From positions 57,233-121,232 of the forward strand of contig CP066690.1 in the NCBI GenBank assembly GCA_016432465.1: a DNA stretch of 64,000 nt, in the 5' to 3' direction. Both the position numbers and the translations under genes were made by a program. Shown here one piece after another: positions 2,622 through 43,608 of the stretch. How positions within the stretch are numbered: position 1 is the first letter of the stretch; each line of letters begins with the position of its first letter. Origin of the DNA: Candidatus Sungiibacteriota bacterium. GTDB taxonomy: Bacteria; Patescibacteriota; Minisyncoccia; Sungbacterales; HO2-52-23. The notes below the pieces were generated by a model that ran no database searches, was not told where the DNA came from, and saw only the letters and a list, made by a program, of their open reading frames with translations.

Positions 2622-2831
2622 GTGGCAAAAACCGATATTCACCCTAAATACTATGAAGCCACGGTAAAATGCGCCTGTGGAAATACTTTCAAAGTCGGGT
2701 CAACCAAGGAACGGCTGGAAGTTGAAATTTGCTCAAAATGCCACCCTTTCTATACCGGGGGCTCAAAACTCATAGATACTGCAGGAAGGGTGGAGAAATT
2801 TAAGCAGCGGCTTGCGAAAAAGAAATCTTAG
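2622..2831 (+). CDS. rpmE: 50S ribosomal protein L31 (type A, zinc-binding)
   Basis: [12 protein letters not shown]...[10 protein letters not shown] matches L31 N-terminus and CxxC/CxxCH zinc motif; GTG start. Confidence 0.9.
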
Positions 2832-2907
2832 ATGCAAAATTAGACGCCACTTGTGCGCAGAATTAGACGCAATCGCGTTTATTATTGCGTAATAGTGGCG
2901 TTTATGG

Positions 2908-3834: not shown

Positions 3835-5145
3835 AATAATCCGATTGGCGTAGGAACGGCAGACGTACCGCGTACAACTTGGCCTACCGGAAATGTAGGT
3901 TTTGGCGGCGCGTATTTCTCCTGCTTCGGTTTTTGCGTCAGCGCCGGCGTCAGCCAAAAATATAGCCGCGGCGGTAAACGCATCCTCAACGTTCCAAGGA
4001 CTGGAAGGATTATGCCCAGTAAGGCTGGCAACTCGTTTCTCAAAACGTAACCACGTTGTCGGAATAAACTGGGCCGGCCCCATTGCGCCGCCGCAGCCAT
4101 AATTTGGCCTGCGCGAGACTGGCATTTTATCAGGATCAAGATTTAGTTTACCCGTAATTTCAAAAAATGCCGCTTTTTCTGATTCTGCCTGCTTTCGTCT
4201 TCCAAGACGAATGTAGCAATTATACATATCCCGTTCCCAATTTCCGGTGCCAACGTTGGTGCCGACAGAAATTACCCCGTCTTCAAACTGCTTTCCGGTC
4301 TCAACTTCAAGAAGGGCCAATAAAAACGCGGTCCTAATTCCGGCGCGCTTGGCCGCAAGATCCGCAAAACGAATAGCATCTTCTGCCGTAATCCCTGTTT
4401 TTTCCAAATAAAAGAGCTGGGTTTTTAGGGTCGCAATGTCCCTCTTTTTTGACTTCAAAAGCTGCTGGAAAAGAGCTTCTTTGCCTTTGGTAAGACGGAG
4501 CAGTTCTTCTTTTTCTTTCTTTTTTTGCGCAAGAAATCTTCGTTCCACTTCCTGTAGCGATCGTAGATCTTGTTGCTCTTCTTCAAATTCTTCCAGTTCA
4601 ACTTTTTCTTTTTCCAGAAGCGTCTTATCCTCTTTAAATTCGCCTACTGCCTCTTGTATATTAGATTGCACCCGCTGGAGACTATTTAGAGAGTTGAAAA
4701 AATCGGACAAATTTTGATTTTTTAAAAGTATAGTGAGAGCATTATCCTGATCATATGCGTAAAGAAGGAAAAGACTTGCGCCCAGGGCGCGTCTGGACTT
4801 GTCAATTTTTTTGGCAAGCATTGCAATGCCTGCGCTTTTAGCCTGAATCTCAAGGGCGGTTTTTTTAATCACAAGCGCAAGACGTTTAATCTCAAGCTCG
4901 CGGCGTTTTATTTCTGTGTTAACCGTCTCAGTTTCGTTGGCGAGAGTCCGCGCTTCCCCCTGTACTTGCTGCAAATTTTTATCAAGTTCATTAGCTTCCT
5001 GCTCAAGCCTCTGCAACTGTCTTTCAAGCTCTGCGCGTTTGACAGGATCAAGCTCTTGGGCGTAAGCAGCTGTGCAGCCGGCCAGCAAAAATAGTCCCAG
5101 TGCTGCTGGGAAAATCCAACAAGATACCCTGTATTTGGATACCAT
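3802..5145 (-). CDS. secreted coiled-coil protein with C-terminal lytic transglycosylase (SLT-like) domain
   Basis: signal peptide, long heptad/coiled-coil region, C-terminal ...EVETG...GAMGPAQFIPTTW motif typical of SLT/goose-type lysozyme fold. Confidence 0.6.
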   Translation of the reverse strand: MVSKYRVSCWIFPAALGLFLLAGCTAAYAQELDPVKRAELERQLQRLEQEANELDKNLQQVQGEARTLANETETVNTEIKRRELEIKRLALVIKKTALEIQAKSAGIAMLAKKIDKSRRALGASLFLLYAYDQDNALTILLKNQNLSDFFNSLNSLQRVQSNIQEAVGEFKEDKTLLEKEKVELEEFEEEQQDLRSLQEVERRFLAQKKKEKEELLRLTKGKEALFQQLLKSKKRDIATLKTQLFYLEKTGITAEDAIRFADLAAKRAGIRTAFLLALLEVETGKQFEDGVISVGTNVGTGNWERDMYNCYIRLGRRKQAESEKAAFFEITGKLNLDPDKMPVSRRPNYGCGGAMGPAQFIPTTWLRFEKRVASLTGHNPSSPWNVEDAFTAAAIFLADAGADAKTEAGEIRAAKTYISGRPSCTRYVCRSYANRIISLARDIDRIL

Positions 5146-5157
5146 GAGTTTATTATA

Positions 5158-5832
5158 TCACTCTTCCTTCTCCTCGCCAGCCGTTTCTTCCACCACTTTC
5201 GTCTCTTCCTTTATTTCTCGTTCTGTTTTAACTTCTTCGGGTGCGGCCGCTGTTGAAACTTGTTCCAGCGCGGCTAACTCCTCTTCAGAACGAGGCGCCT
5301 CAATCAATACCACCACCTCGTCCGGTTCAGCCAAAATTTTCACTCCTTTTGGTGTGGGAATATCTTTTACAAAAAGTTTGGACCCAAATGCGGCAAGCCC
5401 CGAAAGGTCAATCCGCAGCTCACGCGGTAAATCCTGCGGCAGGGCTTCTACTTCAAGTTCCTGCATTACCCTTACCAAAATACCGCCTTCATTTTTAACT
5501 GCGGGCGATTCTCCAAAAAATTCAATTGAAACTTTGGTGCGGATTTCTTTATCCATGCGCACGGCATAGAAATCGGCATGAAGAGGGATGCCTTTTAGGG
5601 GGTCATTTTTTATATCATGTATTAAAACGTTATGGGACTTGCCGTCTACATCAAGTTTGATAAGTGTGGACTCCCCTGCCTCGCGGTAAACCTTTTCAAA
5701 ATCTTTATACGGCACCGCAATCGGCTGGGACTTAACTTTTTCGCCATACACCACCGCAGGCAAAAAACCGGCTCTCCGAAGAGCCTTTACTTTTTTGCCT
5801 AATTCAGTTCGTGGTTGGGCCTTAAGTTCCAT
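5158..5832 (-). CDS. rplY: 50S ribosomal protein L25 / general stress protein Ctc
   Basis: MELKAQPRTELGKKVKALRRAGFLPAVVYG... typical L25/Ctc N-terminus, acidic C-terminal tail. Confidence 0.85.
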   Translation of the reverse strand: MELKAQPRTELGKKVKALRRAGFLPAVVYGEKVKSQPIAVPYKDFEKVYREAGESTLIKLDVDGKSHNVLIHDIKNDPLKGIPLHADFYAVRMDKEIRTKVSIEFFGESPAVKNEGGILVRVMQELEVEALPQDLPRELRIDLSGLAAFGSKLFVKDIPTPKGVKILAEPDEVVVLIEAPRSEEELAALEQVSTAAAPEEVKTEREIKEETKVVEETAGEEKEE

Positions 5833-5881
5833 AATAAAAACAGTTTAACATATCTCTACAAAAAATAAAAGGGCTCCTAAA

Positions 5882-6439
5882 TTAGGAACCCGCAACCTGG
5901 GTTGAGTTGGCTGACCTGAAGTTAGAATTAATATTGATAGCGGCAAATAAGATTATACTACCCAAGAGTAAAAAGGCACTTCCAATAAAAAATGGCACCA
6001 AAGAAGCTTTTACCGCCGTTAAAATGAGTTGTTTTCCTTCATGACTGGTGGCAATGTTGTAAAGGAGCGGTTGAAGGAACGGTTGAAGGTTGCTCTTGAG
6101 TTTTTCTTTAGTATAGTACAATTTTCTGTCCGGCGTTCTAATAAAATACAGTAACTCTACAGGTTGGAGATTTTGAAGCATTGCAATAACTGGTTTATCT
6201 GAGCCCGCGGGAATTAGTGCAAGAAATTCTGCAGGTGGAATTTCTCTATATTTACCAGCAACATTCTTATCTTCTAAGTTAATAAAAAGGCCTGGATAAA
6301 ATACGGCATAATCAAGAACTGGAGAGTAAATAGCTTCTGTCACAGGAAGTTGTTCTCTATGGGCCTTGAGACCCGCACCACCGAAAACCAAACCAATCAG
6401 AATTAAAGATACGGCCGAAGCGTAAAGAATATATCTCAC
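5882..6439 (-). CDS. hypothetical membrane protein
   Basis: 185-aa ORF with N- and C-terminal TM helices. Confidence 0.5.
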   Translation of the reverse strand: MRYILYASAVSLILIGLVFGGAGLKAHREQLPVTEAIYSPVLDYAVFYPGLFINLEDKNVAGKYREIPPAEFLALIPAGSDKPVIAMLQNLQPVELLYFIRTPDRKLYYTKEKLKSNLQPFLQPLLYNIATSHEGKQLILTAVKASLVPFFIGSAFLLLGSIILFAAININSNFRSANSTQVAGS

Positions 6440-9190: not shown

Positions 9191-10177
9191 TTAAATTTTT
9201 TTAGGGAAATAATCCGCCGGCGCTTCTGCAAGATATTCCTCAAGTTTTTTTCGCGAAAGCAGGCCTTCTCGCGCGCCAACATATTGCACCACGGACATAG
9301 AATTTATAGGAGCCCACCGTAACGCCTCGGGGACGTCTAAACCCAGACAAAGCGCTACGACAAAAGTTGAGGAAAAGGCATCTCCTGCGCCAGTACGTTC
9401 ATATGGAGGCTTGGGGTCGGGGTAAGAACGCATACTCCAAGCATTTTGACCATCAGATGCGTAAGCCCCGGCCGGACCGTCGGTAATCACTACTATTTTA
9501 GGACCGAGTTTATGCATCATTTGCAGTAATTTTTTAATTTCTTTTTCGTCGGTTCCCAAAATCCTCTGGGCTTCTTCTTTATTGCATAAAAACACATCCG
9601 AGCGCTCGTAAATTTTTTTCAAAACATCTTTTCCGGCCTTTATCTGGAAAGTGCCCGGCTGAAAAGCAAGTTTAATTGACGGATGGTCGTAAAGATACTT
9701 CTCTACTATTTTATGAAAAGGTAAAGAATTTCCTGCGAGGGACGAAAAATAGACCCACTTGGGTTTGTCTATTTCGGGAAGCGAATATTCAAACTCCTCA
9801 TGTTTTATCAAAATCGTGCGGTCATCCTCGTACCACAAAACATAATGGTAATTTGTTTTCTGGTCTTTATGGATTTTTATAAACTCCGTGTCTACTTTTT
9901 CTTTTTTTAACGCGTCCAAACATTCCTGCCCGAAATAATCATCCCCTATGTTGGAGACAAGCGCGCTTTTTAAACCCAAACGCGAGGCGGCAACCGAAGC
10001 ATTGGCGCTATTGCCTACGGCCGGCACTACATAGACTGCCTCATACGGAATTTTATCTTTGAAACGCATGCAAATAACGCATCGTTCCCTATCAATATCA
10101 CAATGCACCGATGCGTCTTTTAATCGTATAAAAGCATCGGTTGCGGTGTCGCCTATGGCAATGAAATCGTAAATCAT
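9191..10177 (-). CDS. PfkB-family carbohydrate/nucleoside kinase
   Basis: C-terminal TGAGDAFSSTFVVAL PfkB signature, N-terminal GG-box region. Confidence 0.75.
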   Translation of the reverse strand: MIYDFIAIGDTATDAFIRLKDASVHCDIDRERCVICMRFKDKIPYEAVYVVPAVGNSANASVAASRLGLKSALVSNIGDDYFGQECLDALKKEKVDTEFIKIHKDQKTNYHYVLWYEDDRTILIKHEEFEYSLPEIDKPKWVYFSSLAGNSLPFHKIVEKYLYDHPSIKLAFQPGTFQIKAGKDVLKKIYERSDVFLCNKEEAQRILGTDEKEIKKLLQMMHKLGPKIVVITDGPAGAYASDGQNAWSMRSYPDPKPPYERTGAGDAFSSTFVVALCLGLDVPEALRWAPINSMSVVQYVGAREGLLSRKKLEEYLAEAPADYFPKKI

Positions 10178-13100
10178 TTTAATAGTGTTGAGATTCGTTT
10201 AAGCATCCCTACAAAAGATTGCTGAATAGCTGCGAGGGTCCGCCTTATTGGACTTGAAGCGCTAATCTGTAGCCACGACACTTGCGCCACCGCCGCCCCT
10301 CCATTTTCATAATACTCCACTTTAATCCTGTGGGTTCCAGCAATGAGTGTTCTATCAAATATATAAGTGGTGGGGGCTTGGTCAAACCATTTATCAAGTA
10401 TAAGCGCTCCATCTATCCAAAGCCGCAGGCCGTCATCAGTGCGAGCGGTAAAACGATGGGTTCCGGCGGTAAAATCCCAATCCCCTTCCCAGCGGACGCT
10501 GAAGTTATCCGAAGGAATAGAAGAATCTGGAGAACCATTACCCCAATCAAAGCTAATGAGCTTATCAGTCCTGACAATCTTACGGTTGGTGAAGTTACGG
10601 CTGGCGTAGTACTCGCTTCTGAAGGCATTCCTCGGAATCGTCCCATTCTGACACGAGGCAATAAAATTATTTATTGGCGAATGCGCTCCGGCTGCCGGAT
10701 AGAAAACACGCACCCGATAGGACGCTCCATTCTGTAAGAGAAGCGGTCCCGAGACGCCGCTTAACCCGTTGAAGCCGTCGGGAGCAATCGTGCTTAAAGT
10801 TCCCGCAGGCAGGGATTTATTCCAAAAACCATTATTCCAATTATCATCATTATCAATATCAACTATGTAGCCTTGAGACCCGCGACCTGCTTCCGGCCAG
10901 GCAATCGTTGCTTTGGAAACGCCCCCTTCACAGAATGTATCTGCTGAAGGATTGGAAAGTACAGAGGGTGTCCCGGGAAGAGTGGCGTTAATTATTGGCT
11001 CAAGCGTGGGACAGGTCCAAATCCGTACTTCTGCTTGTCTTAGGCCCGAGCTATTCCAAACTGACCTCTGCCATCCTCCTGCGGGCCCTTGAGGACCTGC
11101 AGTAAAATGATCATGCCCGTACATTATAAAACCCCAATCATAACTTGCTCCGGGAGGCTTATCTCCGGGACCAACATCTATTCCCCACGGCTCATTGAGA
11201 TTGGGATTCGGAGGCGAAGAAAGCACCAGTATCCACCGAATCCCGACCTCTCCCCCGAGGTCAAGCTTTCGCAAGGCGCTTATTTTCATACCAAAAGGTC
11301 CGGGTGTACCGCCCGTAACCTGCTGCCAGCTTTTAAATTGGCACGGCGCGGGCGCGTAATTTGCCGGTTTTTGCCAAAGCCACCAGTTATCAGTGGAACG
11401 ATTGTCCGCTCCCAAAGAATACGTTTTCCCCAAATCTCCCGGAAGCGCAACGCTATTTGCGGCCAACGGCAAAATGTCGGGAAATTTGGTATTTTCCGGC
11501 CAAAATACTCCACCCCAGCCTGGATTTCCCGGACCATCAAACCAGTTAGACGGGTTTTTGCGCTGTCCCGTCTCGGCAATCCCCCAAAATGTGCCGTTAG
11601 TCCCCCAAACATCAAGAACCGGCCAATCAAGAGCGCCGCCTTGGTCAGTCGCATCCAATATCATAGAAAGCCATCTGCCGGTGGCAAATTCTAAACGGTT
11701 TTGCGGTCCAAAATCTCCGTCGTCAACTTGTTTAAAAAGACCGGGTTTTTTGAAACGATTCCCCTGATACTTCTTTCCAAATCCAGCTATTGCTTCCCAC
11801 AGATTAATCTGTACCGGAGGAAGACCTTCGGGGAGCGGTAGCAGATCAAACGCTTCTTTAATGTTTGCTTCCGTTACTTTTACAGCTGATATATTTTCCC
11901 ACCTAGCCGTGGAGGCCGTTGCCGGCAGCCAGTCCAGACTTGCCACTGCCGCCCCTCCATTTTCATAATACTCCACTTTAATCCTGTGAGTTCCCGCGGT
12001 TAGTGTTCTATTAAAGGTGTAGGTGGTTGGGGCTTGGTCAAACCATTTATCAAGTATAAGCGCTCCATCAATCCAAAGCCGTATGCCATCATCCGTACGA
12101 ACCGCAAAGGTGTAGATTTCAGCGGCAAAATCCCAATCCCCTTCCCAGCGGACGCTGAAAGTGTCCGGCGCAATAGCCGGGTCCGGTGAACCAGTTCCCC
12201 AATCAAAACGAATCCCTGCGTCTATTCTGGTAAGTATCTGCCCGGTAAAATCGCGATTATTGAAATACGTGCCAAAAAAAGTATTTTTTGAAATTCCGGC
12301 AGGATGTATCACTACTTTATCCTGTCTGATATAGGCAATGTCATACCACCAGACACGAAACTCCAAAGCGTGATTTAGAATAGAAGTAAAATCAAGCCCA
12401 AAAGGCTGGTAGGTAAGGGTTGAAGTAAATTCACGACGCCGTATATCCCGTTCTACCAATATTTTACCGTCGGTGGAATCAAAAATATCAAGTCTCACTA
12501 CTGGAAAATCGTCAGCGGTATTATTATCAATCATCAAATAGAAATCAGCTGTCGTGGCCCCTGCCGGAAGACTACGGACGTAAGGACCATAAGAGAGATG
12601 ATTTTTACTATCTTGGGCAGTATTTACAGACCAGCCATCTGCCTCCGACCGTCCAATACGATGGAGCATGTCTTTTTCTGCTTCAAAGACCCACCCAGCC
12701 GGCAAGAATTCTGACGTATAAATGGGGGTTGGTGCAGTTGTGATTGTGGGTGTAGGTGTAGGTGTGGGTGTTGGAGTTGGTGTAGGAGTTGGGGCCGGCG
12801 CAACAGTTGTAGTTGGCGATGCTTCATTCAAGACCTGCCAAGAAACATTGGCCAGCGCTGCCCCGCCATTCTCAAAATATTCAACTTTAACCCTGTGATT
12901 TCCCGCAGCTATAACCCTATCTATGGTATAAGTAGTTGGTCCCTGGTCAAACCATTTATCAAGAATTACCTCGCCATCCAGATACATCCGCATACCGTCA
13001 TCGGTTTTTACGGTAAATCTATAAGTTCCCGTTGCGGCAAATGACCAATCACCTTCCCAGCGGACGCTAAAAGTGTCTGGGGCAATTGACGGATCCGGGG

Positions 13101-13320
13101 AGCCCAAACCCCAATTAAAATTTATATTAGAGTCAGTGCGAACAAATTTAAGATCGGTTAAGTCTTTATTGTCGTAGTAAGAGGCGGTAAAGGAGTTAGC
13201 CGCGACTGCGGAAAGAGACTGTATTGTTTCCGGACTTGTGGTTTGAGCAAAAGCCAAAAGCGGAACTGCCATCAAAGTTCCTAAAAATATGATTGAAAAA
13301 AGGGGGGGCGTAAATTTCAC
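10174..13320 (-). CDS. secreted protein with three PA14 domains and PT-repeat linker
   Basis: signal peptide; PA14-like blocks (FTxxTDDGxRLWIDGxLILDKWFDQxPTTY...HRIKVEYYENGG) x3; PTPTPTPT linker; central glycoside-hydrolase-like region. Confidence 0.7.
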   Translation of the reverse strand: MKFTPPLFSIIFLGTLMAVPLLAFAQTTSPETIQSLSAVAANSFTASYYDNKDLTDLKFVRTDSNINFNWGLGSPDPSIAPDTFSVRWEGDWSFAATGTYRFTVKTDDGMRMYLDGEVILDKWFDQGPTTYTIDRVIAAGNHRVKVEYFENGGAALANVSWQVLNEASPTTTVAPAPTPTPTPTPTPTPTPTITTAPTPIYTSEFLPAGWVFEAEKDMLHRIGRSEADGWSVNTAQDSKNHLSYGPYVRSLPAGATTADFYLMIDNNTADDFPVVRLDIFDSTDGKILVERDIRRREFTSTLTYQPFGLDFTSILNHALEFRVWWYDIAYIRQDKVVIHPAGISKNTFFGTYFNNRDFTGQILTRIDAGIRFDWGTGSPDPAIAPDTFSVRWEGDWDFAAEIYTFAVRTDDGIRLWIDGALILDKWFDQAPTTYTFNRTLTAGTHRIKVEYYENGGAAVASLDWLPATASTARWENISAVKVTEANIKEAFDLLPLPEGLPPVQINLWEAIAGFGKKYQGNRFKKPGLFKQVDDGDFGPQNRLEFATGRWLSMILDATDQGGALDWPVLDVWGTNGTFWGIAETGQRKNPSNWFDGPGNPGWGGVFWPENTKFPDILPLAANSVALPGDLGKTYSLGADNRSTDNWWLWQKPANYAPAPCQFKSWQQVTGGTPGPFGMKISALRKLDLGGEVGIRWILVLSSPPNPNLNEPWGIDVGPGDKPPGASYDWGFIMYGHDHFTAGPQGPAGGWQRSVWNSSGLRQAEVRIWTCPTLEPIINATLPGTPSVLSNPSADTFCEGGVSKATIAWPEAGRGSQGYIVDIDNDDNWNNGFWNKSLPAGTLSTIAPDGFNGLSGVSGPLLLQNGASYRVRVFYPAAGAHSPINNFIASCQNGTIPRNAFRSEYYASRNFTNRKIVRTDKLISFDWGNGSPDSSIPSDNFSVRWEGDWDFTAGTHRFTARTDDGLRLWIDGALILDKWFDQAPTTYIFDRTLIAGTHRIKVEYYENGGAAVAQVSWLQISASSPIRRTLAAIQQSFVGMLKRISTLLK

Positions 13321-15882: not shown

Positions 15883-16770
15883 TTACTCATGTTCGCTATG
15901 GATTTTCCCACCGAGCGTTCGTAATCTTGAAAGAAATTCTTTGGTTTGTTCCGCGGCGGGAAAAACATCCGTGGGTCCCTTACCAGGAGGCACGCCATGC
16001 CATCGGTAATCAAATTCAATCTCCGGTACCCCCTTTCCCGGAACGGTATGCGCGATAACAACCACCGGTTTTTCAAAAATTCCCTGCGCGGTCTCATACG
16101 CATTAACAATCTCTTCAAAATTATGACCGTTTATTTCAAGAACGTGCCAATTAAAAGACTCGTATTTGGCGCGCAACGGCTCAAGCGGCATAATATTTTC
16201 GGTCATTCCGTCAATCTGAATATTGTTGCGATCAATAAGCGCGGTTAAATTATCAAGTTTCAGTTTGCCAGCAAGCATGGCCGCCTCCCAAGTTTGCCCT
16301 GCTTCTTGTTCGCCATCTGACATCAAACAATATATATTAAATTTCTTTTGGTCCATTTTGGCGGCAATGGCCATACCTACTGCCTGCGAAAGTCCTGAAC
16401 CCAAGGGCCCGGAAGTTGTTTCCACGCCCGGAAGAGCAGTACGATGCGGGTGGCCCTGAAGACGCGTGCCGAGTTTTCGCAATGTTTTTAATTCTTCCAC
16501 CGTAAAATATCCCGCACGAGCCATGGCGGCGTAACGTACGGGGCAGATGTGCCCGTTGGATAAAATTAGCCGATCACGTTCCGACCAATCCGGATTTTTA
16601 GGGTCATGACGCAAAATATGAAAATAAAGCGCTGTGAAGATATCGGTCATGCCCAGCGGCCCGGCAGTATGTCCAGATCCTGCTTCGGTCAACTCCATCA
16701 CAATATCCTGACGGATGGTATTGGCCATCTCTTCCAGAAATTTGATTTTATCATCGTGTAAATGAGACAT
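15883..16770 (-). CDS. transketolase, N-terminal (TPP-binding) section
   Basis: GSGHTAGPLG and SNGH motifs of TK N-terminal domain. Confidence 0.85.
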   Translation of the reverse strand: MSHLHDDKIKFLEEMANTIRQDIVMELTEAGSGHTAGPLGMTDIFTALYFHILRHDPKNPDWSERDRLILSNGHICPVRYAAMARAGYFTVEELKTLRKLGTRLQGHPHRTALPGVETTSGPLGSGLSQAVGMAIAAKMDQKKFNIYCLMSDGEQEAGQTWEAAMLAGKLKLDNLTALIDRNNIQIDGMTENIMPLEPLRAKYESFNWHVLEINGHNFEEIVNAYETAQGIFEKPVVVIAHTVPGKGVPEIEFDYRWHGVPPGKGPTDVFPAAEQTKEFLSRLRTLGGKIHSEHE

Positions 16771-17482
16771 TTTTTAGTTGATTAACCGCAGTTTGAATAT
16801 CGAAACTATTAAAAATATAAGCTCCGGCCACAAGCAAATTAGCCCCTGATTCAACGGCTTTTTTGGCTGTTTCGGGGTTTATCCCCCCATCTACCTCTAT
16901 TATACACCCGGGGCAGGATTTGCGAATGTGGATAATTTTATCGTAAATTTCTTCCTGTATTTGCTGGCCAGAAGGGCCGGGGTGAACGGCCAAAGTCTGA
17001 TAGATATCAACTTTTTTAAACCATGGCTCAAGCTTTCCCCAAAATGTTTCCGGGTTTATAGCTAAACCTACTTCTACATCGGCCTCACGGCATTTTTTAA
17101 CAATCAAGTCTATGTCGGATACGGCTTCCAAATGGACAATGACGCGTTTTATTGGTTTAACCAGCCATTGGTCAATAACTTTCTCCGGTTCGCTGACCAT
17201 CAAATGAACCTCTACATTCAACTTTGTATCCAAAAGTGGCAAATCCGCAGGATTGTGCCACGTTAAATGTTTAGAAAAAATGCCATCCGTAACATCAAGG
17301 TGGCACCATTTAACATAGGGCTCTACTTTTTTAACCCGTTCCTGCACCTCCTCAAAAGTGCGGACGTTGATGGAGGGGATAATTTCAATTCGGTTCAAAG
17401 TTATAAGTTTAAAGTTAAGGTTACAAGTTTTTAGTCTAAGTTTTAACCTTAACAATAAACTAAAAACTAAAACTTTGAACAT
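16751..17482 (-). CDS. rpe: ribulose-phosphate 3-epimerase
   Basis: RPE fold conservation (IIPSINV..., HLDVTDG, VHLMV, EVDGGI); annotated N-terminal 30 aa are encoded by a palindromic repeat, true start probably near 17388 (TTG). Confidence 0.8.
   Translation of the reverse strand: MFKVLVFSLLLRLKLRLKTCNLNFKLITLNRIEIIPSINVRTFEEVQERVKKVEPYVKWCHLDVTDGIFSKHLTWHNPADLPLLDTKLNVEVHLMVSEPEKVIDQWLVKPIKRVIVHLEAVSDIDLIVKKCREADVEVGLAINPETFWGKLEPWFKKVDIYQTLAVHPGPSGQQIQEEIYDKIIHIRKSCPGCIIEVDGGINPETAKKAVESGANLLVAGAYIFNSFDIQTAVNQLKNVSFTR
17392..17480. repeat. AT-rich nested-palindrome element (aagtttaaagttaagg... family)
   Basis: gttcaaagtt...aactttgaac and aagttaaggtt...aaccttaac arms; related copies inside 23S gene. 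Confidence 0.6.
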
Positions 17483-17493
17483 TAAACATTAAA

Positions 17494-17949
17494 CTATCGA
17501 AAATTATGCTCCTCAATCTCCTCAATTTTCTTGAGCCGCCTAATGTGCCTTTCCTCACCACTAAAACTCTTTCCCAACCACACAGTCACAATATCTTTTG
17601 CCTCTTCCGACTCCAGCCAATCCGAGGCAAGAATCAAAACATTAGCATCCTCGTGTTCACGTGATTGCGCCGCAACCTGCCGGTTAAAGCATAAAGCCGC
17701 CCGAATGGAGCGGTATTTATCGGCAACCATATTCATTCCGTGCCCGGAGCCGCAAATAAAAATCCCCTTATGCAATGACGGGTTCTCTGCTATCTTTTCA
17801 GATGCCTCACGAGCAAAATCCACATAATCGTCATCTTTGTCGTAAGAAAATGCGCCCACGTCCTCAACCTCGTGTCCCTGCTCAACTAAATATTTTTTAA
17901 GCTCTTCTTTTAGCTTAAACCCCCTGTGGTCCGCGGCAAAGTAGATCAT
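17494..17949 (-). CDS. rpiB: ribose-5-phosphate isomerase B
   Basis: MIYFAADHRGFKLKEEL... and CGSGHGM motif of RpiB/LacAB family. Confidence 0.85.
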   Translation of the reverse strand: MIYFAADHRGFKLKEELKKYLVEQGHEVEDVGAFSYDKDDDYVDFAREASEKIAENPSLHKGIFICGSGHGMNMVADKYRSIRAALCFNRQVAAQSREHEDANVLILASDWLESEEAKDIVTVWLGKSFSGEERHIRRLKKIEEIEEHNFR

Positions 17950-20715: not shown

Positions 20716-20868
20716 TCAAGAATCGGTCTCCCGCACAAATTCCTCATGTCCGCACTTGTCACAACGAAGTCCTCGCCGCTCCGTAGATCGACTAACCAGC
20801 TCGGAAAACCGACCCATCCATCCCTTCCTGCATACTTGACACAATGCCACGCCGCACATGCAGCACAT
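20716..20868 (-). CDS. small Cys-rich zinc-ribbon-like protein (50 aa), alternative to track ORF 20676..20879
   Basis: ATG 8 nt downstream of RBS aaaggagg; MCCMCGVALCQVC...CDKCGHEE has three CxxC pairs; frame choice uncertain. Confidence 0.25.
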   Translation of the reverse strand: MCCMCGVALCQVCRKGWMGRFSELVSRSTERRGLRCDKCGHEEFVRETDS

Positions 20869-21206
20869 CTCCCATTCACCTCCTTTCTGAAGAACTAAAT
20901 TCCCGTGGCGGAATTGCCACGGGAATTATTTTCCAAAAGTTTTTGATTAAAACCTTCTTAGTTTAGACAATAATTTCCATGGCAAAATATTGCAAAACAC
21001 CGCAACGACGTGCGGTTCGCTTCACATTATTAAACATGGAACAAAGTTGCTGCATAATAATTGATCTTGGGTGCTAGCAATGGTATTCCGGCCCGCGCTT
21101 CGCTGAAGCTTCGGCGAGGCGAGCAAACCCTATCCAGCACATAACAAGTTATGTACTGGACTCCGTTCTCCCGCTTTCAGCGGGATCACTTCGCTTTCCC
21201 AACATT

Positions 21207-21325
21207 ACTGGCGTACCCTACTTTCCCAGGCGCGGATTGGCACCAAGTATCATTGGGCCTAGATGCTTTCACTACTGAGTTCGGAATGGAATCAGGTGGA
21301 TCACATCTAGGTAAAACACCAGCAA
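21207..21325 (-). rRNA. rrf: 5S ribosomal RNA
   Basis: reverse complement matches 5S core CCACCTGAttCCATtCCGAACTCAGtAGTGAAA...GCGCCTGGGAAAGTAGG; terminal helix pairs. Confidence 0.85.
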
Positions 21326-21713
21326 AGTTCGGAATGCGAAACCAAACTTAACTTGGCGAGTCTCACCATATATTTTTGAGAAACTTCTCAAAAATTTATA
21401 GGCGGGCAGGTAATTAATGATCTATTAGTATCGCTCGGCTAAACGCATTGCTGCGCTTACACCTGCGACCTATCAACGTAGTCATCTTCTACGGATCTAA
21501 TACTAGCGGACATCAGAAATCGGAGATCGGAAATCAGAAAAGTTCTGACGTCTGATTTCTGAAATCTGAAGTCCGCTAGTTCGATACCTAATCTTGAGGC
21601 GTGCTTCGCACTTATATGCTTTCAGCGCTTATCACAACCGAACATAGCTACCCAGCGGTGCTCCTGGCGGAACAGCTGGTACACCAGAGGTTCGTTCATC
21701 CCGGTCCTCTCGT

Positions 21714-22354
21714 CACATTTTCTTCTATCACTAGAAGTGTAGACTATATCTTTGCCCCTTTGGATTTTGATCTAAAGTCGGGCATCGGCATATTATAATC
21801 AAGAATTTTCTTGACTATCCGTCCCGGCAATGCCGGGAACAAGTCGTTACGGGGTCATATTGACAAATTCTAGTATATCATGTAATAATGATATCGCCGA
21901 AATGAAAGGAGGACTCATGGCCCGAGAGTTGGTCGTTGACATGTTCTATTCAACGATTAAGACACCATGGATTACCTGCGATAAGTGTGGCTTTAAAGCA
22001 AAACAGTCAGATCTCAGATATGACGGATATTATAAGGATCATTCTGGTTTTAACCACCATTTTCACTGTCCAAGGTGTTATGAGTCTATTTTAATACCAA
22101 GCCTTTTATAGGCGGTATCATCAACCATTGCTCCTGACTTCCCGGGAGCATTTTTTTGTCAATTGACTTCCCACGGTATTAACTTTAGTATGTTTGATCG
22201 AAGTTCTCGGACCGCGAGATTTCTTCGCAAACTAAAGCATCCATGGCTAAGCCGAGTTTGACTCGGCCGCCATCCCGTCCCGCTTTTAGCGGGATTAGGG
22301 ACCGTTATTAGCCAAATTGTCATCGCGCATTACTGCGCGAAGTAGCAATACTTT
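21714..22354 (-). mobile_element. group-I-like intron in 23S at sarcin-ricin loop (exons rejoin to CCUAGU|ACGAGAGG)
   Basis: 5' exon ends in U, insertion ends in G, removal restores conserved CCUAGUACGAGAGGACC; 641 nt. Confidence 0.6.
21917..22111 (+). CDS. small zinc-ribbon protein encoded antisense inside 23S intron
   Basis: TTGACA-17-TAATAA promoter at 21860-21888, RBS aaaggagg 21905-21912, ATG 21917, CDKCG...CPRC motifs, hairpin+T7 terminator 22150-22178. Confidence 0.45.
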   Translation: MARELVVDMFYSTIKTPWITCDKCGFKAKQSDLRYDGYYKDHSGFNHHFHCPRCYESILIPSLL

Positions 22355-22405
22355 ACTAGGGACGACCCCTCTCAAGTATCAACGCCTGTGGTAGATAGGA
22401 GACCA

Positions 22406-22439
<34 letters not shown>

Positions 22440-22444
22440 GACTT

Positions 22445-22493
<49 letters not shown>

Positions 22494-22509
22494 AAGTCGA
22501 GCCGACATC

Positions 22510-23130
22510 GTATGTTCGCTTCGCTCACAACGCGATACCAATATACGAATGGCATGCGAATGATACGAATTGCGAATTTCCTCTATTACTAGAGGCATGG
22601 ACTATATCTTCATCCCCCTGCATGCCTGCGGAAGGAGCTCGCGTATTATATTTTGCTTAAAGCAAAATATCTTTCCGAACTTTATTCGGAAAAGTCTCTA
22701 CGGGGTTAATGCTTTTTTTATAGAAGCTCTGGTTTCAGCAAACTTAGCGACATCTTGAATAGCTTGCTGAATTTCAGTTTCAATAATATCAACCGGTCGT
22801 TTCCCTGAATCAATCTCCGCATCAGTCCAATTTCTACGACCAATCGGGTCTTCCAATTGTTGAAGTCGTGCAACGAGCCTTGACGATGCCTCGCTCAACA
22901 AAAGATTATTTTCTTCCAATTGATTCAGAAGTTCTTGGTTGTTTAATTGTAATTCTTCTTTCATATGCATAACTTCCCTCGGTATTATCCTATCAAATTT
23001 GGTTCAAAAACTCAATAGGATTTCACCGATATTAGCGAGATTTTTATGCAGGATTACTCCTGCAGCACCCCGATGATCGTGATGGCCAGTCACGTGCAAA
23101 CTAGTTAACCAGAGAACTAGCTAACTAATA
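22510..23130 (-). mobile_element. intervening sequence in 23S near the conserved ...CACCUC/GAUGUCGG... peptidyl-transferase segment (intron class undetermined)
   Basis: conserved GGCACCUC and GAUGUCGGCUC exon blocks separated by ~620 nt; boundaries lack canonical group I/II termini. Confidence 0.5.
22698..22970 (-). CDS. small coiled-coil protein encoded within 23S intervening sequence (sense to rRNA)
   Basis: 90-aa ORF with RBS gagggaag; heptad-rich; no HE motifs. Confidence 0.35.
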   Translation of the reverse strand: MHMKEELQLNNQELLNQLEENNLLLSEASSRLVARLQQLEDPIGRRNWTDAEIDSGKRPVDIIETEIQQAIQDVAKFAETRASIKKALTP

Positions 23131-23511
23131 AACTATTGTTGAGGTGCCGAACTCCGCCGTCGATATGAACTCTTGGGCGGAACTAGCCTGTTATCCCCAG
23201 AGTAGCTTTTGTCTGATAATCTTTGGCCTTGTTCTAGAAAGCGATAAATACCCACACCTCGGAACTGAATCCGAAGCGTGAATAATTACCATGGCCATCG
23301 GTTCACTAAGCTCTGCTTTCGCACCTGCGCGGGATATCCCCCTTGCAGTCAAGCCGGCTTGTGCCTTTACACGTCCACCCCGATTTCCATCCGGGGTAAG
23401 CCGACCTTAATAGACCACTCCATTACTTTTTGGGAGTGTAGTGCCCCACCAAAACTGCCCACCAGACACTGTTCCAGTTGGGCTTCACCGCGAAGCCCAC
23501 AGTTAAGTTTA

Positions 23512-23640
23512 AGGTTAAAAGTTTATTGTTAAGGTTGTGAGTTGTTAGTTTAAGTTAATGTTTAACCTAAACCAAAAACTTACAACCTAAACTTACAGGT
23601 TGCCAGAGCAACCGAAACTTTAAACTTAAAACTGTCGTGT
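23512..23640. repeat. AT-rich nested-palindrome element inside 23S
   Basis: gttaaggttgtgag...tttaagttaatgtttaacctaaac... related to 25185, 27305, 27843 copies. Confidence 0.55.
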
Positions 23641-24027
23641 GAACACTGCGGTGTTCCCAACCGGTTAGAATTTAAAACTTCAAAGAGTGGTATTTCACTG
23701 ACGGCTCCTCTTGATCCGGAAACCAAGAATCAAAGCCTGCCACCTATGCTACGCATCAAAGTTCTAAACCCAATATCAAGTTGCAGTAAAGCTTCTGGGG
23801 TCTTTTCGTCTAACCACAGGTATCCGGCATCTTCACCGGAATTGTATTTTCACCGGGCTCCTCGTTGAGACAGTCCCCTAGTCGTTACGCCTTTCGTGCG
23901 CTTCAGAACTTACCTGAAAAGGAATTGCGCTCAATTACGTTATCACCGAGCACTCAATTTTGGATTTGACAAAATTGTCAAAATTGGTTATGTTGAATAT
24001 GGTACGTTCTACCTACTGGAGGTAAAC

Positions 24028-24237
24028 ATGAAGTTCAAGGACTTGGAGATTGGGGATCATTTTGTTCTCCCAAACCATATCCCAACCAGGAACGGTATCC
24101 CTTCACCCATCGATGCTGTACAGCTTGAGGTTTTTCGTAGGATCACCACTCATGGACGCATTAACGTGCTGTCCGTAAAATCTTTGGCTCCAGGATACGT
24201 TAACCATAACGCTCCGGTCATCAAACTTATCATGTGA
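24028..24237 (+). CDS. small protein (69 aa) encoded antisense inside the L1931 intron
   Basis: TTGACA(23966-23971)-17-TATGTT promoter, RBS ggaggt 24018-24023, ATG 24028, stop 24237, hairpin gccaccgccggtggc + TTTTT 24242-24262; cassette bounded by perfect 18-nt inverted repeat 23946-23963 / 24270-24287. Confidence 0.45.
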   Translation: MKFKDLEIGDHFVLPNHIPTRNGIPSPIDAVQLEVFRRITTHGRINVLSVKSLAPGYVNHNAPVIKLIM

Positions 24238-24348
24238 TTTCGCCACCGCCGGTGGCATTTTTAAATAATCCAAAATTGAGTGCTCGGATCCTCTATGTCG
24301 CCATAGAGATCGGACTATATCTTACAAACAGAAGTCAGGTGTTGGAAA

Positions 24349-24912
24349 TCAGAAGTCAGAATGCTTCCGACTTCCAATATCCGATGTCTGATATCTGTTG
24401 TTCTGGCGTATAGTCTCTGAGGATTCAAGATATTGAGATGGTTTCTTACGATTCATTTGCTCTACTGTCCTCGCAATTTCTTTCATACCCTTCTTGGTTA
24501 GATGGATTTTCCGTTCCATCATATCAAGAATTTTTATGAATCGTTTGAAGTCACTTTGTTTTGCAGTACGGAGCGGATATTTCTGAAAGAAAGGAATTAT
24601 TTTCTCACGTATATCTTTCGTAGACCTAACACAATAACGATATAGCGGTTCACGGTGATTATCGTAACGCTTATTGATGAAAATTTTTCCGCAGCCGAAG
24701 AATTTTTGTAATTCTTCAAGAGCGAATAAACTTTTTTCACCTTGCGTTACCACAAACTCCGGAAAAACCTGCCATCCATTTTTAAGAATCCTATTACGAA
24801 AGACTCCTACAGAGAAACATCCTTCTCCGTCTACAAAACCAGTTATCCATCCCAAATAATAATCTTGCCTTTCCTGCTGATTATCTGCACTGGACACATT
24901 TTTACTTGGCAT
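24349..24912 (-). CDS. LAGLIDADG homing endonuclease (single-motif type)
   Basis: LGWITGFVDGEGCF dodecapeptide motif, 187 aa, inside intron and sense to rRNA. Confidence 0.85.
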   Translation of the reverse strand: MPSKNVSSADNQQERQDYYLGWITGFVDGEGCFSVGVFRNRILKNGWQVFPEFVVTQGEKSLFALEELQKFFGCGKIFINKRYDNHREPLYRYCVRSTKDIREKIIPFFQKYPLRTAKQSDFKRFIKILDMMERKIHLTKKGMKEIARTVEQMNRKKPSQYLESSETIRQNNRYQTSDIGSRKHSDF

Positions 24913-25184
24913 AATTTTAGAAGATTTTATCCCCTAAGGATAATTATACCTTAGTAGTGCCAGATACTCCAGACTTTCCAGCATATAGTCCCGACGTTTC
25001 ATCTAAAAATTAGGATGAAGAAGTCGGGATCCCGATTTTACACTATGATTATTTTATAAATAGTGCATCGGGACCAGATTTTATTAAAGCAGCGCGCTTT
25101 CTACTTTAAGACCCTTATAGTTAGGGCCGACATTGACGAGGGCTTGATACCTAGAGCCGCGAGGCGGCCTCGTATGTTTATAAG

Positions 25185-25325
25185 TTTGTAGTTAAAAGTT
25201 TTGAGTTTAAGTTAAAAGTGATTAGTTTAAGTTAACGTTAACCTAAACATTAAACTAAAAACTTAAACTTAGGAGGCCGCTAGGCCGGAACCTAGAACTA
25301 AAAACTATAAACTAATCGAGGTCGC
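25185..25325. repeat. AT-rich nested-palindrome element inside 23S (near E. coli ~1860)
   Basis: ...gtttaagttaaaagtgattagtttaagttaacgttaacctaaac...cttaggaggccgctaggccggaacc... Confidence 0.6.
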
Positions 25326-26151
25326 CCCGCGACCAAGGTATTTAACCTTCTCGCATTGGTCAGGCGTCACCCCCCATACATCCTCTTACGAGTTAGCGGG
25401 GAGCTGTGTTTTTGGTAAACAGTCGCCAGGGGTACTTTTGTTGCAGCCCCTAAGCCCTTGCGGGCCGGGGCAGACCTTATTGCGAACTTACGGTCGCTTT
25501 TTTGCCGAGTTCCTTAACGAGGAATCACCCATTCGCCTTAGTGTTCTCCACCAACCCACCTGTGTCGGTTTACGGTACGGTCGCATGCTGATATTTTAGA
25601 CGGTTTTCTGGGAAACGCGCTTTGCAAAATTTCTAATGGATTGCTCCAAAAGATTTTCTCCGCGCTTGGAACCGAGCATTACCTCCATGGACGGATTTTC
25701 CTATCCACGTTCCTTACGCTAAGAACGAAAATCCAATAATTCGCTTTGCATACTGCGTTCCGTTACGCCATCAAAACAACATGCGGTGCTGGAATATTAA
25801 CCAGCTGTCCATCAGCTACGGCTTTCGCCATTGCCTTAGGACCGACTAACCCTCAGTTGATTGCCATTGCTGAGGAAACCTTGGGTTTTCGGCGGTCCGG
25901 GCTTTCACCGGACTTGCGGTTACTTGTGCCAACATTCTCTCTTCTTAACGCTCCAGTCGCCCTCGCGGGTCAACCTTCACTGCATTAAGAATGCTCTTCT
26001 ACTGCTTGCGCAACTGCCAATTGCCAACCGCTAACTCTTAATTTTTATTAGAAATTAGAAGTTAGAAATTCGAAGTTGCGCAAGCCCGTAGCTTCGGTAC
26101 AACGCTTAGCCCCGAGTATCTTTGGTGCAGTGTCTCTAGACGAGTGAGCTG

Positions 26152-26194
<43 letters not shown>

Positions 26195-26923
26195 CGCTGT
26201 TTGAGAAACTCCACCGCCTTATTACACTTAGCGTTGATTTAGGGACCTTAGCTGACGATCTGGGCTGTTGCCCTCTTGCACGATGGAGCTTAGCCCCCAC
26301 CTGCTGACTCTTGGAATAACTATACGCGCATTCGGAGTTTGGTTGGTTCGCCGAGCTTTCGCCCTTACGAACCATCCAGTAGCTCTACCTCGCGTATCGT
26401 ATAATCCAAGGCTAGCCCAAAAGCTATTTCGAAGAGAACCAGCTATTACCAGATTCGATTAGCTTTTCACTCCTTACCACAGGTCATCCGAAGGCGTTGA
26501 ACGACCCACCGGTTCGGGCCTCCCCCCGATGTTACTCGGGGTTCACCCTGCCCATGGCAAGCTCATCTGGCTTCGGGTCTTTTGAATACTACCTACAAAA
26601 GCTTCTTAGCTTATAGCTTCCTAGCTTCCTAGGAACGAAAATAAACTCGCACCTAAAAAGCTAAGAAGCTAAAAAGCTAGAAAGCTATTGAAAACGCGCT
26701 ATTAACACTCGGTTTCCCTACGACTCGGTGCCTCGCGGCACTTAGTCAAGCAGTATCCAAAAACTCGTTGGCTCATTCTTCAATAGGCACCACAGCAGAG
26801 ATCAGAGGTCGGATGTCGGAAATCAGAATTTTAGTTCCGACTTCTGATTTCCGATCTCTGATCTCCTTTGTGTCCTTGTAAGCATATGGTTTCAGGTACT
26901 ATTTCACCGCCCTCACCGGGCTG

Positions 26924-26962
<39 letters not shown>

Positions 26963-27304
26963 GTTCCGGGAGTATTTAGCCTTGGCGGACTAGTTCCGCC
27001 TGCTTCCTGCCCAGTCTCCATACGGGGCAGTACTCAAGAACCCCGACGCACTATTAGAAATCTAACAATGAAGTCGGGGTCCCGACTTTACGTCGGGATA
27101 ATAACTAGGAGCATGCAATATTTTTCAAATACGGGGCTTTCACCCTCTTTGGCCGGCCTTTCCAGGGCCGTTCTTCTAAATAAATCGCAACTTTTTGCTC
27201 CTTCGGATCGCTCCGAGCGCTATTATCTTACAACCTCCCGGTCTCCATTAAATAAATTCAATAGAAACCGGGATTTGGGCTGATCCCTTTTCGCTCGCCG
27301 CTAC

Positions 27305-27450
27305 TGGGGGAATATATCAGTTTATAGTTAAAGGTTTTAAGTTTAAGTTAAAAGTTATTAGTTTAAGTTAGCGTTAACTTAAACTTTAAACTAAAAACTT
27401 AAACTTAGGAGGCCGTTAGGCCGTAACCTAAAACTAAAAACTGACATTCT
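27305..27450. repeat. AT-rich nested-palindrome element inside 23S (near E. coli ~200)
   Basis: ~95% identical to copy at 27843-27975. Confidence 0.65.
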
Positions 27451-27507
27451 TTTCTTTTCCTCCGCTTACTGAGATGTTTCACTTCAGCGGGTATCGCGCC
27501 AAGCACT

Positions 27508-27695
27508 CATTTCTATACACTTGACAAATTTATAAATATAAACTATGCTAAGATCAACCAAGGGGGTTTGGTTACAACCACCGATAGCCTGGCCCGGTCC
27601 TACCGGACTTCCCAGGCCGCTGGTTGGTTAGACCCCCCTGCCACAGGTTTTCCCTGTGGCCTCTTTTTTGAGTACAGAAATGAGTGCTCGGCGAA
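27508..27695 (+). promoter_or_regulatory. antisense promoter-terminator cassette within 23S 5' domain expansion helix
   Basis: IR cgccaagcactcatttct / agaaatgagtgctcggcg flanks TTGACA(27531)-17-TATGCT and hairpin ccacaggttttccctgtgg + CCTCTTTTTT (27636-27668); no ORF with RBS. Confidence 0.4.
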
Positions 27696-27842
27696 TGCGT
27701 TTTACGCAAACGGGTTTCCCCATTCGGACATCGCCGGATCAAAGGTTGCTCGCCACCTCCCCGACGCTTATCGCAGGCACGCCACGTCCTTCATCGCCTC
27801 CGGAACCCTAGGCATCCACCATATGCTCTTAATTAATTCTGT

Positions 27843-27975
27843 TCATAGTTAAAGGTTCTAAGTTTAAGTTAAAAGTTATTAGTTTAAGTTAGCGTTAACT
27901 TAAACTTTAAACTAAAAAACTTGAACTTAGGAGTCTCGCTGTAAGCGGGACGAAACCTGAAACTAAGAACTGATT
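27843..27975. repeat. AT-rich nested-palindrome element in 23S 5' leader
   Basis: near-identical to 27305-27450 copy. Confidence 0.65.
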
Positions 27976-28538
27976 TTACCTGCCCGCCTATAAATTTTTG
28001 CTTATTAGCCAAAAAATTATGGGGCGGGAATACAATTTTTTACTTCGACTATGCTCAGAATTCTAATACTGAGCCTGCCGAAGTATACCTGTTTATTCAG
28101 TTTTCAAGATACTATCCTTATCTGCCATCGGATATCCACCTGCTATAAACGGATATCCGACGGCAGGTAAACCCGCGCACTAATTCTGAAATGGTTTTGT
28201 CTCAACTGAGATTATTTCCGCGGTGTCGCCTCTGTCAAGCTAAACTTGACGTCGGCTCCATCAGTACCAACACTAAAGCCTCAATAGAATTAGTGCGGGG
28301 TCAATTGTCCGTTTCCAAATTTTCTGCGCCTGATGGCTTAAAAATTTGGACGGAACAATTGAAAAACCGCGTAAGTACGCGGCTCTTTCACACAGTATCT
28401 AAAAACTGTAGGCTAAATTTCAATCATTTTTTGAGCCGCTTTATTTTTAAATTGTAGACGGGTTTTCATTGTTATCGCAATTATACTCCCGGCCCCATCT
28501 TGCTGTCAACAATATCTGTGGATAAGCTGTCAAATACA

Positions 28539-43449: not shown

Positions 43450-43608
43450 GACCTCTTACACAATAACAATTCTACTGCAATTCCAGAATTTTGGCTGCAA
43501 ATCGTTCAGGCTTCGTCGGCTTATATGTGGCATATAGGCCTCCTCATCCTTCACGATTTTCGCTCAAAATTCTGGAATTTCGTCACGAATGCTTATTGTG
43601 CAAGAGGT
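43450..43608. repeat. conserved hairpin element, copy 2 (extended arms)
   Basis: ttctactgcaattccagaattttggct...ctcaaaattctggaatttcg with compensatory g/c swap relative to copy 1; outer arms gacctcttacacaataac/ttattgtgcaagaggtc. Confidence 0.7.

Follow-up and report, generated by a model that had tools for sequence, protein, structure and literature searches.

Paralogous hairpin inserts in the 23S rRNA gene region and the rpiB-rpe spacer of a Candidatus Sungiibacteriota genome

A five-member family of AT-rich inserts

We identified five homologous AT-rich copies (A to E) of an element of ~130 bases in a MAG of Candidatus Sungiibacteriota (CPR). All five are on the minus strand and fall within 10.6 kb of the 64 kb window, by which we mean the whole stretch of DNA that was analysed. 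The cassette has been copied at the DNA level between non-homologous sites, which comprise three helix loops of the 23S rRNA, the leader junction of the same gene, and the spacer between the protein genes rpiB and rpe. The best reading, to which we assign a probability of roughly 0.6, is that these are Y-shaped hairpin cassettes similar to bacterial intervening sequences (IVS), that they are paralogues specific to this genome, and that they were copied as DNA between sites encoding loops. The repeat family is real and better supported than most such findings, and the interpretation that accompanied its original prediction is partly right.

Alignment and profile searches bear out the proposal of a nested-palindrome family shared by the 23S gene and one protein-gene spacer, as well as the existence and homology of all five copies that had been listed. 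A MAFFT alignment of the five has a mean column identity of 69%. When the window was searched by nhmmer with the five-copy profile, exactly five matches were returned, all on the sense strand, whose E-values range from 1e-24 to 1e-37; nothing further fell below E=0.001, leaving the other 53 kb empty. A profile made from A to D alone recovers the intergenic copy E (E=1e-14, 50 bits), so the membership of this copy is not circular and is no low-complexity artefact.

The copies are short (115-150 nt), multi-copy and free of ORFs, as MITEs are. Copy A (27837..27978, minus strand, as are all the others) is matched by nhmmer at E=4e-33 and is placed by a cofold of leader and trailer and by an inverted repeat. 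Copy B (27316..27450) was delimited by cmscan, by the join in the blastn alignment and by an exact empty site in a relative's locus (L011). For copy C (25176..25325) the cmscan result is accompanied by an identical sequence in the Logan contig L010, and copy D (23503..23641) was located by cmscan and by blastn against E. coli. Copy E had been placed at 17392-17480 and actually spans about 17389..17503, based on the A-D-only profile, the alignment, and four independent Logan assemblies (L002-L005) in which it is identical. A look-up of A and B in independent assemblies, by way of spurious ORFs, gave no record.

Pairwise identity is 91% for B and C, 88% for A and B, 67-70% for D against the others and 75-78% for E against the others. 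The pair A and B is a mosaic. The ~95% identity that had been ascribed to it holds for the 3' 95 alignment columns (93.7%) but not for the 5' 41 columns (58.5%), which contain the GC side hairpin described below; overall, the two are 83% identical when gap columns are counted and 88% identical over positions present in both. The exact pattern TAACTTAAACTAAYNACTNNNAACYTWAAC had 0 matches in 185,579 GTDB species genomes and JGI metagenome contigs, and thus neither the source genome itself nor any other carrier is included in those collections. Zero matches were found when element B was compared by BLAST with plasmids and phages. An Rfam scan of the C/D region at a permissive threshold yielded only chance miRNA-like matches (E=0.24-0.67).

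Fold and sequence architecture

Copies A to D are each predicted to fold into a Y shape, with z-scores of -4.3 to -9.4 relative to dinucleotide shuffles, in line with the expectation that the rRNA copies would form long hairpins. The Y has an outer stem rich in AU, in which CAGUUUUUAGUUUUAGGUU pairs with AACCUUUAACUAUAAACUG; a small GC hairpin stands on its 5' side, and the third part is a long hairpin, also AU-rich, whose U-rich internal loops are symmetric. In copy E the outer arms and the long hairpin are present and the GC side hairpin is missing; the z-score of this copy, against the same type of shuffle, is -3.2 in sense and -5.2 in antisense. Of the 42 pairs in the consensus structure, 5 have undergone compensatory double changes. 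Invariant AGUU/AACU boxes are separated by variable bases, and the arms as a whole are made of degenerate tandem units of 6-8 nt. At one and the same position, the GC side hairpin is represented by three unrelated stems (one in A, one in B and C, one in D). Together with the compensatory pairs, these alternative stems are evidence for a maintained fold.

The two DNA strands fold about equally well, with 0-3 G-U pairs per copy. Asymmetry of G-U pairs between strands was considered as a test of RNA-level selection and rejected because, with both strands alike, it is either uninformative or points to a DNA-level origin. Nothing in the cassette sequence singles out an RNA strand. The termini of the element are palindromic (CAGTTTTTAG...CTATAAACTG) and are inverted repeats solely by virtue of the overall palindrome; no separate terminal repeats were found at the five copies.

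Because the arms are tandem arrays of 6-8 nt, and many unrelated periodic hairpins occur in related genomes, similar low-complexity hairpins might in principle have grown by slippage at each site independently, with no copying between sites. Such convergence would have to account for 88-94% identity over 95-128 nt, for the same irregular order of units and for shared internal loops, and the family profiles had zero matches to the other AT-rich periodic hairpins of the relatives. We consider this explanation extremely improbable. It is already contradicted for A, B, C and E, and is a good account of how the arms grew.

Placement of the copies in the 23S rRNA gene and its leader

The 23S rRNA gene (21410..27842, minus strand) is about 6.4 kb long, as identified by Rfam (LSU, 1691 bits) and by blastn against E. 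coli rrlH, and contains three group-I-like introns and about ten hairpin inserts. Rfam placed the 23S rRNA at 27842-23046 and the 5S rRNA at 21324-21205, and found no 16S gene or tRNA in the 64 kb window. The 3' end at 23046 was rejected as ~1.6 kb too early, given that blastn puts E. coli 2501-2884 at 22510-21424. In this alignment, E. coli 2501-2657 corresponds to 22510-22354, 2657-2787 to 21713-21583, and 2815-2884 to 21493-21424. A 24-nt processing stem encloses the gene, its 5' strand (27976..27999, minus strand) being perfectly complementary to its 3' strand (21390..21413, minus strand).

Three large intron-like inserts, all on the minus strand, were recognized in the gene. The first (23932-25100, 1169 nt, at about E. 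coli 1931) includes a LAGLIDADG ORF at 24349-24912 (Pfam LAGLIDADG_1). The second (22511-23140, 630 nt) and the third (21714-22353, 640 nt) are at about E. coli 2500 and 2657, respectively. Matches of the three to the group I intron model RF00028 are below threshold (34, 32 and 23 bits), and E. coli positions 1931 and 2657 are known intron sites in CPR (PMC11270868).

Copies B, C and D each enlarge a hairpin of the 23S rRNA, as seen by cmscan. Copy B is in the loop of a small hairpin between H11 and H13 (E. coli 224-232), where there are 134 nt compared with 6 in the model. For copy C the insertion site is the apical loop of H68 (E. coli 1854-1878; 179 nt versus 17), and for copy D it is that of H79, the hairpin after CUAAC (E. 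coli 2200-2225; 172 nt versus 4). Copy A, which had been thought to lie inside the 23S gene at 27843-27975, is located 5' of 23S position 1 and thus outside the mature rRNA. In the cofold it forms a side arm of the pre-23S leader, flanked by the 5' strand of the processing stem and by helix 1. All surviving copies either lengthen a hairpin or occupy a spacer, and the rRNA core is uninterrupted. The 35 permissive insertion sites that were recovered in E. coli (PMC2441807) include neither the tips of H68 and H79 nor E. coli 224-232.

Two of the copies are raised on GC-rich pedestals. That of copy C (25326-25334 and 25156-25175) has GGTCGC-GGG-GCGACC on one side and CGAGGC-C-GCCTCG on the other, and that of copy D, which is specific to its site (23642-23663 and 23473-23502), has GAACAC-CGCA-GTGTTC on one side and GGGCTTC-GCGGT-GAAGCCC on the other. 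In both cases an inverted copy of the adjacent host flank is present. Relatives without the insert possess only the outer halves of these pedestals, which at D amounts to just GGGAAC...GAAGCCC. From the look of these flank duplications we infer snap-back (fold-back) synthesis at a break.

The copy between rpiB and rpe

Copy E fills the spacer from the stop codon TAG of rpiB (17494..17949, minus strand; Pfam LacAB_rpiB, E=8e-45), which supplies the first bases of the element, to the probable TTG start of rpe at 17398. The longest ORF for rpe, of 243 amino acids, begins inside the element and reads MFKVLVFSLLLRLKLRLKTCNLNFKLITL ahead of the conserved IIPSINVR. Its Pfam domain (Ribul_P_3_epim) begins only at residue 34, and the Rpe proteins of relatives start with M/V/L-x-E-I/V-I-P-S-I-N-V-R. 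The domain start and these N-termini place the real start at about TTG 17398 or a nearby codon, giving a probable true extent of 16751..17398 (minus strand); the start within the element is probably spurious, as had been suspected. A hairpin that spans the rpiB stop and the rpe start could couple or gate translation of rpe.

Some hairpin is found between rpiB and rpe in every relative examined, in each case different from that of the window. In L006 the spacer contains GACTAAAG units, in L007 TTTCTAAT units precede a TTGAAAAT hairpin, and L008/L009 combine TTCTAATT units with an inner GC hairpin. The closest relative (L016, with an RpiB 87% identical) has a GC-rich 66-nt hairpin set that is read through by the rpiB ORF. 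The rpiB-rpe junction of this relative was considered as an empty site and rejected, since the alignment shows this different hairpin set in its place.

Corresponding sites in related genomes

Loci of relatives were collected via homologues of RpiB, homologues of the LAGLIDADG protein, and a 27-mer adjoining H79. The order 23S - 5S - 260-aa gene - ftsW is common to all of them, and in several the downstream rpiB - rpe - tkt or the upstream EF-P and MscS-like genes are shared too. Among these loci are L011 and L012 (GCA_964492515.1), whose 23S exons are 80-96% identical to those of the window and which have no insert at sites B, C and D. At site B, the join of window positions 27446 and 27317 corresponds in blastn to the adjacent bases 5424/5425 of L011, an exact empty site. 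The tip of H68 has 37 nt in L011 versus 182 in the window, and that of H79 has 7 nt versus 166.

The tip of H68 is short in L014 and L015 as well as in L011, and site B is also empty in L019, L021 and L022. H79 is uninserted in 11 of the 13 relatives' loci (L007, L011, L012, L015, L018-L023 and L024); L008 and L009 have there an unrelated 105-nt insert on a shared basal extension. In L014 and L024, site B is occupied by a hairpin of GTAG units that is homologous between the two and unrelated to the family in the window; in L014 it follows the same AATGT that precedes the window's copy. The 23S leader of relatives bears hairpins as well. No copy of the AGTT family, to which A to E belong, was found in any relative's locus examined.

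Two explanations that involve no recent insertion can be weighed against these observations. The first is that the copies are functional expansion segments of the Sungiibacteriota ribosome, conserved by vertical inheritance. Their placement at helix tips, the undisturbed core and the structure-preserving changes between copies would all be expected of such segments. The original prediction had named conservation at the same sites across the lineage as the finding that would overturn it, and this is not what is seen: the cassette is missing from these sites in relatives whose 23S exons are 80-92% identical. In addition, one member is in an mRNA spacer and members of sister families are inside spliced introns. 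We regard this explanation as already contradicted and very improbable.

The second is concerted evolution, in which hairpins already present at the five sites were homogenized by ectopic gene conversion without any insertion. The presence of some hairpin in the spacer and in the 23S leader of every relative is in its favor, as are the site-B hairpins of L014 and L024 (the former after the same AATGT), the basal H79 extension that L008 shares, the mosaic identity of A and B, and the physical clustering of the copies. However, the empty sites B, C and D of L011/L012 and several other relatives mean that some copies must be net insertions, and the flanks have no shared homology that could guide conversion. 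As an account of the whole family we find it quite unlikely. At the leader and at the rpiB-rpe spacer, where relatives already have hairpins, a new insertion and the replacement or conversion of an older hairpin are equally likely. Since the relatives' sites are empty or carry unrelated hairpins, the copies are recent, lineage-specific paralogous inserts and not conserved expansion segments.

Other paralogous insert families

A second family, built of ATCRGAA units, is present in the same gene with three copies on the minus strand, detected with a single-sequence profile and by folding. They are located at H25 (26791..26872), at H98 (21500..21582) and in intron 1 (24316..24400). The copies are 64-73% identical, with mutual nhmmer E-values of about 1e-7, and the profile of the H25 copy found the two others and no further match in the 64 kb window. 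The H98 copy is absent in L007, L008, L009 and L012. The intron copy, absent in L011, overlaps the 3' end of the LAGLIDADG ORF, and homologues of the endonuclease cover only about 91% of this ORF. Other hairpins are also borne by this 23S gene at H25 and H45.

An unrelated family with four copies in one 23S gene was found in L022 (FLOH01000029.1), at H25, H45, H68 and in an intron (E=1e-19 to 1e-29). Its copies are flanked by palindromes with arms of 8-11 nt, like the pedestals of C and D. Every tandem array of period 6-8 in the window falls inside the hairpins described here, and the short rRNA inserts of relatives are likewise hairpins with periodic arms of 7-8 nt. Paralogy within a gene and periodic arms thus recur among such inserts, as seen in the second family of the window, the L022 family and the inserts of relatives.

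Origin of the copies

The original prediction viewed the family as a mobile palindromic element that targets rRNA and intergenic DNA. The paralogous copies at non-homologous sites agree with the first part of this view, but no target-site duplication or transposase was found in the 64 kb, a single copy is outside the rRNA region, and all copies are within 10.6 kb. Placement in rRNA and intergenic DNA could equally be the result of local copying, or of gene conversion between pre-existing hairpins.

In its most explicit form, mobility would mean that the element is a MITE whose ends are recognized by a transposase encoded elsewhere, with only insertions into loops and spacers surviving selection. 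A MITE is compatible with the presence of multiple copies at sites that are not homologous, including a protein-gene spacer, with the empty sites of relatives, with the palindromic termini, and with the second-family copy that lies inside an intron and overlaps the end of an ORF. On the other side, no target-site duplication was detected at the junctions of the five copies or in the comparison of filled and empty site B. Pfam searches of the ~40 window proteins revealed no transposase-like domain, including no RAYT / Y1 transposase, and no recombinase or RNase III (rnc). The family has five copies within 10.6 kb and none in the rest of the window, and no match to a plasmid or phage. Moreover, the GC side hairpin is swapped between copies that are otherwise 94% identical, a mosaic not expected from transposition of whole elements. 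Because of the missing duplication and transposase, the clustering and the A-B mosaic, classical transposition is not favored, and we consider the MITE explanation unlikely.

We return to the preferred reading of IVS-like cassettes copied locally as DNA. Copying would more likely have been templated than of the cut-and-paste kind, for example by gene conversion, template switching or snap-back repair between nearby sites that encode hairpins. The periodicity of 7-8 nt suggests that the arms may have grown by slippage with compensation on the opposite arm. Taken with the periodic arms, the flank duplications at C and D suggest that the cassettes arose by templated repair or template switching combined with slippage. 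In the RNA, the copies would act in the manner of bacterial 23S IVS, being either trimmed by a double-strand-specific RNase or tolerated as surface extensions. Members of the sister families that lie in spliced introns can be of no use to the ribosome, and this speaks for neutral or selfish cassettes rather than functional rRNA.

Comparison with known systems

The closest known kinds of element are the intervening sequences of bacterial 23S genes and palindromic repeats of the MITE/REP type. The 23S IVS known from Salmonella, Leptospira, Campylobacter, Coxiella and alpha-proteobacteria, which are excised by RNase III, also replace a helix tip by an extra stem-loop. They too are sporadic among close relatives, and a horizontal or mobile origin is suspected for them. 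The likeness is one of structure and distribution. The classical IVS sites are H9, H25 and H45, whereas the AGTT family is found at E. coli 224-232, H68, H79 and the leader. It further differs in that one gene contains several paralogues and an mRNA spacer contains another copy, and in that the arms are periodic, with units of 7-8 nt.

Like the MITE, REP, ERIC, Correia and RPE repeats, the elements are short, non-coding, hairpin-forming, multi-copy and transcribed within operons, and one copy is exactly in an operon-internal spacer. Unlike repeats of the MITE/REP type, they have no target-site duplication and no cognate transposase or RAYT found in the 64 kb; most of the copies are in the rRNA gene, and they are locally clustered within the window. 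REP and BIME sequences are imperfect palindromes of 20-40 nt with a conserved 5' tetranucleotide, near a RAYT gene, and the elements described here, at 115-150 nt and with a Y shape, do not correspond to them.

Group I introns with LAGLIDADG genes are the known source of most insertions in CPR rRNA genes, and occur in the same gene as the cassettes. The cassettes differ from them in lacking a catalytic core, an ORF and an Rfam match, and in being located in loops and not at conserved intron sites. An E-value scan with RF00028 over 20800-25200, which includes C and D, matched only the three large inserts, and no match at gathering threshold was found over A and B (whole window; 22800-28200).

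A resemblance also exists to the expansion segments of eukaryotic rRNA, which are extensions of helix tips with two arms of complementary simple tandem motifs. Hancock and Dover reportedly held that these segments grew by 'compensatory slippage'. H79 is an expansion-segment site in eukaryotes also. The same is true of H25, H45 and H98 (PMC2441807 Table 2). In contrast to expansion segments, the family in the window is not orthologous across its lineage, and the same sequence has been copied to several helices and an mRNA spacer and, in the sister families, to an intron.

Significance

Most CPR 23S genes carry insertions, of which the short, ORF-less ones that are not introns were left uncharacterised (PMC11270868, PMC9297842). 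They are suspected of being IVS processed by RNase III (PMC11270868), and short ORF-less inserts of the IVS type have been proposed for CPR 23S genes (PMC11270868, PMC4990558). None of the papers retrieved describes paralogous insert families, periodic arms, or copies that also occur in mRNA spacers.

There are practical consequences as well. Short-read assemblies of rRNA operons are broken by the repeats, and the Logan contig L010 ends near hairpin repeats. The repeats also create spurious ORF starts, as for rpe, and mislead global rRNA annotation, as with the 3' end given by Rfam.

The locus shows that at least some short CPR inserts form families of paralogues, with copying between helix tips, introns and an mRNA spacer, and that such inserts share a periodic hairpin architecture and turn over quickly between related genomes. 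It offers a concrete, testable model for how bacterial rRNA helices gain extensions, and links bacterial IVS with the supposed growth mode of eukaryotic expansion segments. It is conceivable, if doubtful, that in Sungiibacteriota, and perhaps in CPR at large, periodic hairpin cassettes are generated and multiplied by a process acting on DNA, specifically where that DNA encodes RNA hairpin loops, via snap-back or template-switch repair or via an unrecognised structure-specific recombinase. If so, the unit length of 7-8 nt and the inverted flank duplications of C and D would be footprints of that enzymology, and a 23S gene would gain paralogous 'expansion segments' on several of its helices, and in introns and mRNA spacers, within a short evolutionary time.

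Intergenic hairpins and neighboring genes

A 90-nt hairpin at window positions 2828-2917 extends into the beginning of an ORF for a release factor (2908-3834). The PCRF profile match of this ORF begins only at position 100, which may reflect either a frameshift of the RF2 type or an incorrectly called start. Two more long intergenic hairpins of ~100 nt (43479-43579 and 39532-39627) are non-periodic and are unrelated to the AGTT-type, ATCRGAA-unit, or other families. The window also encodes a 1048-aa protein with PA14 domains (10174-13320), which is located between the genes for a pfkB-like kinase and the C-terminal subunit of transketolase; these two genes directly adjoin each other in the relatives L007 and L008.

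In L007 (GCA_964467395.1), the region 5200-5420 contains a TTGAAAAT hairpin bordered by a second, diverged copy of the first 50 nt or so of rpe. This 50-nt duplicate lies upstream and encodes MVEVIPSINVRIFEEAK before it reaches a stop codon, whereas the real rpe lies 3' of the hairpin. We identified a paralogue of this hairpin at L007 11720-11850.

Structure of the 23S rRNA gene

The true 3' part of the 23S rRNA gene is found at 21410-23140 and includes two more intron-like inserts (E. coli ~2500 and ~2657), which split off the 3' end of the gene at 22510-21424. An end at 23046, as placed by Rfam global alignment, was rejected based on the location of the final 400 nt of the gene in this split-off segment. 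There is no 16S rRNA gene within the 64-kb window, thus the rRNA genes are unlinked.

Periodic hairpin families

A second paralogous hairpin family, built from ATCRGAA units, has copies in helix H25 (26791-26872), in H98 (21500-21582), and inside intron 1 (24316-24400), the group-I-like insert at E. coli ~1931. The C-terminus of the LAGLIDADG ORF of this intron is altered and overlapped by the intron copy, and homologues cover only ~91% of the ORF. The 5' part of intron 1 (25000-25080) has a GTAAARTCGGGAYCCCGACTTC motif in common with a 23S domain I insert (27001-27109; E. coli 358-406) that is also present in the relative L014.

Nearly all short rRNA inserts in the lineage (window 26581-26692 and 26004-26085; L011, L014, and L024) form hairpins with arms of 7-8-nt tandem units, which are TAGCTTYT, TTCTAAYT, TTGAAAAT, GTAGnnn, and CGCRGAAS. 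A 170-nt insert in the H9/H10 region (27498-27711; E. coli 130-178) is multi-branched, non-periodic, and GC-richer, and is absent from L011 and L014.

A periodic hairpin family also occurs independently in another genome (L022; FLOH01000029.1), with four copies in a single 23S rRNA gene, located in H25, H45, H68, and an intron (2670-2772, 3430-3531, 4251-4351, and 5881-5982 in reverse-complement coordinates of L022). Near-identical GC-rich palindromes with arms of 8-11 nt flank every copy.

Pedestals of the AGTT-type copies

The AGTT-type cassettes at the tips of H68 (copy C) and H79 (copy D) are joined to their host helices by GC pedestal strands (25320-25334, 25160-25172, 23641-23656, and 23480-23498). 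Each strand is a short palindrome, an inverted copy of the neighboring host flank, and insert-free relatives have only the outer half of the palindrome at these sites. The pedestal palindromes may be the footprint of snap-back repair.
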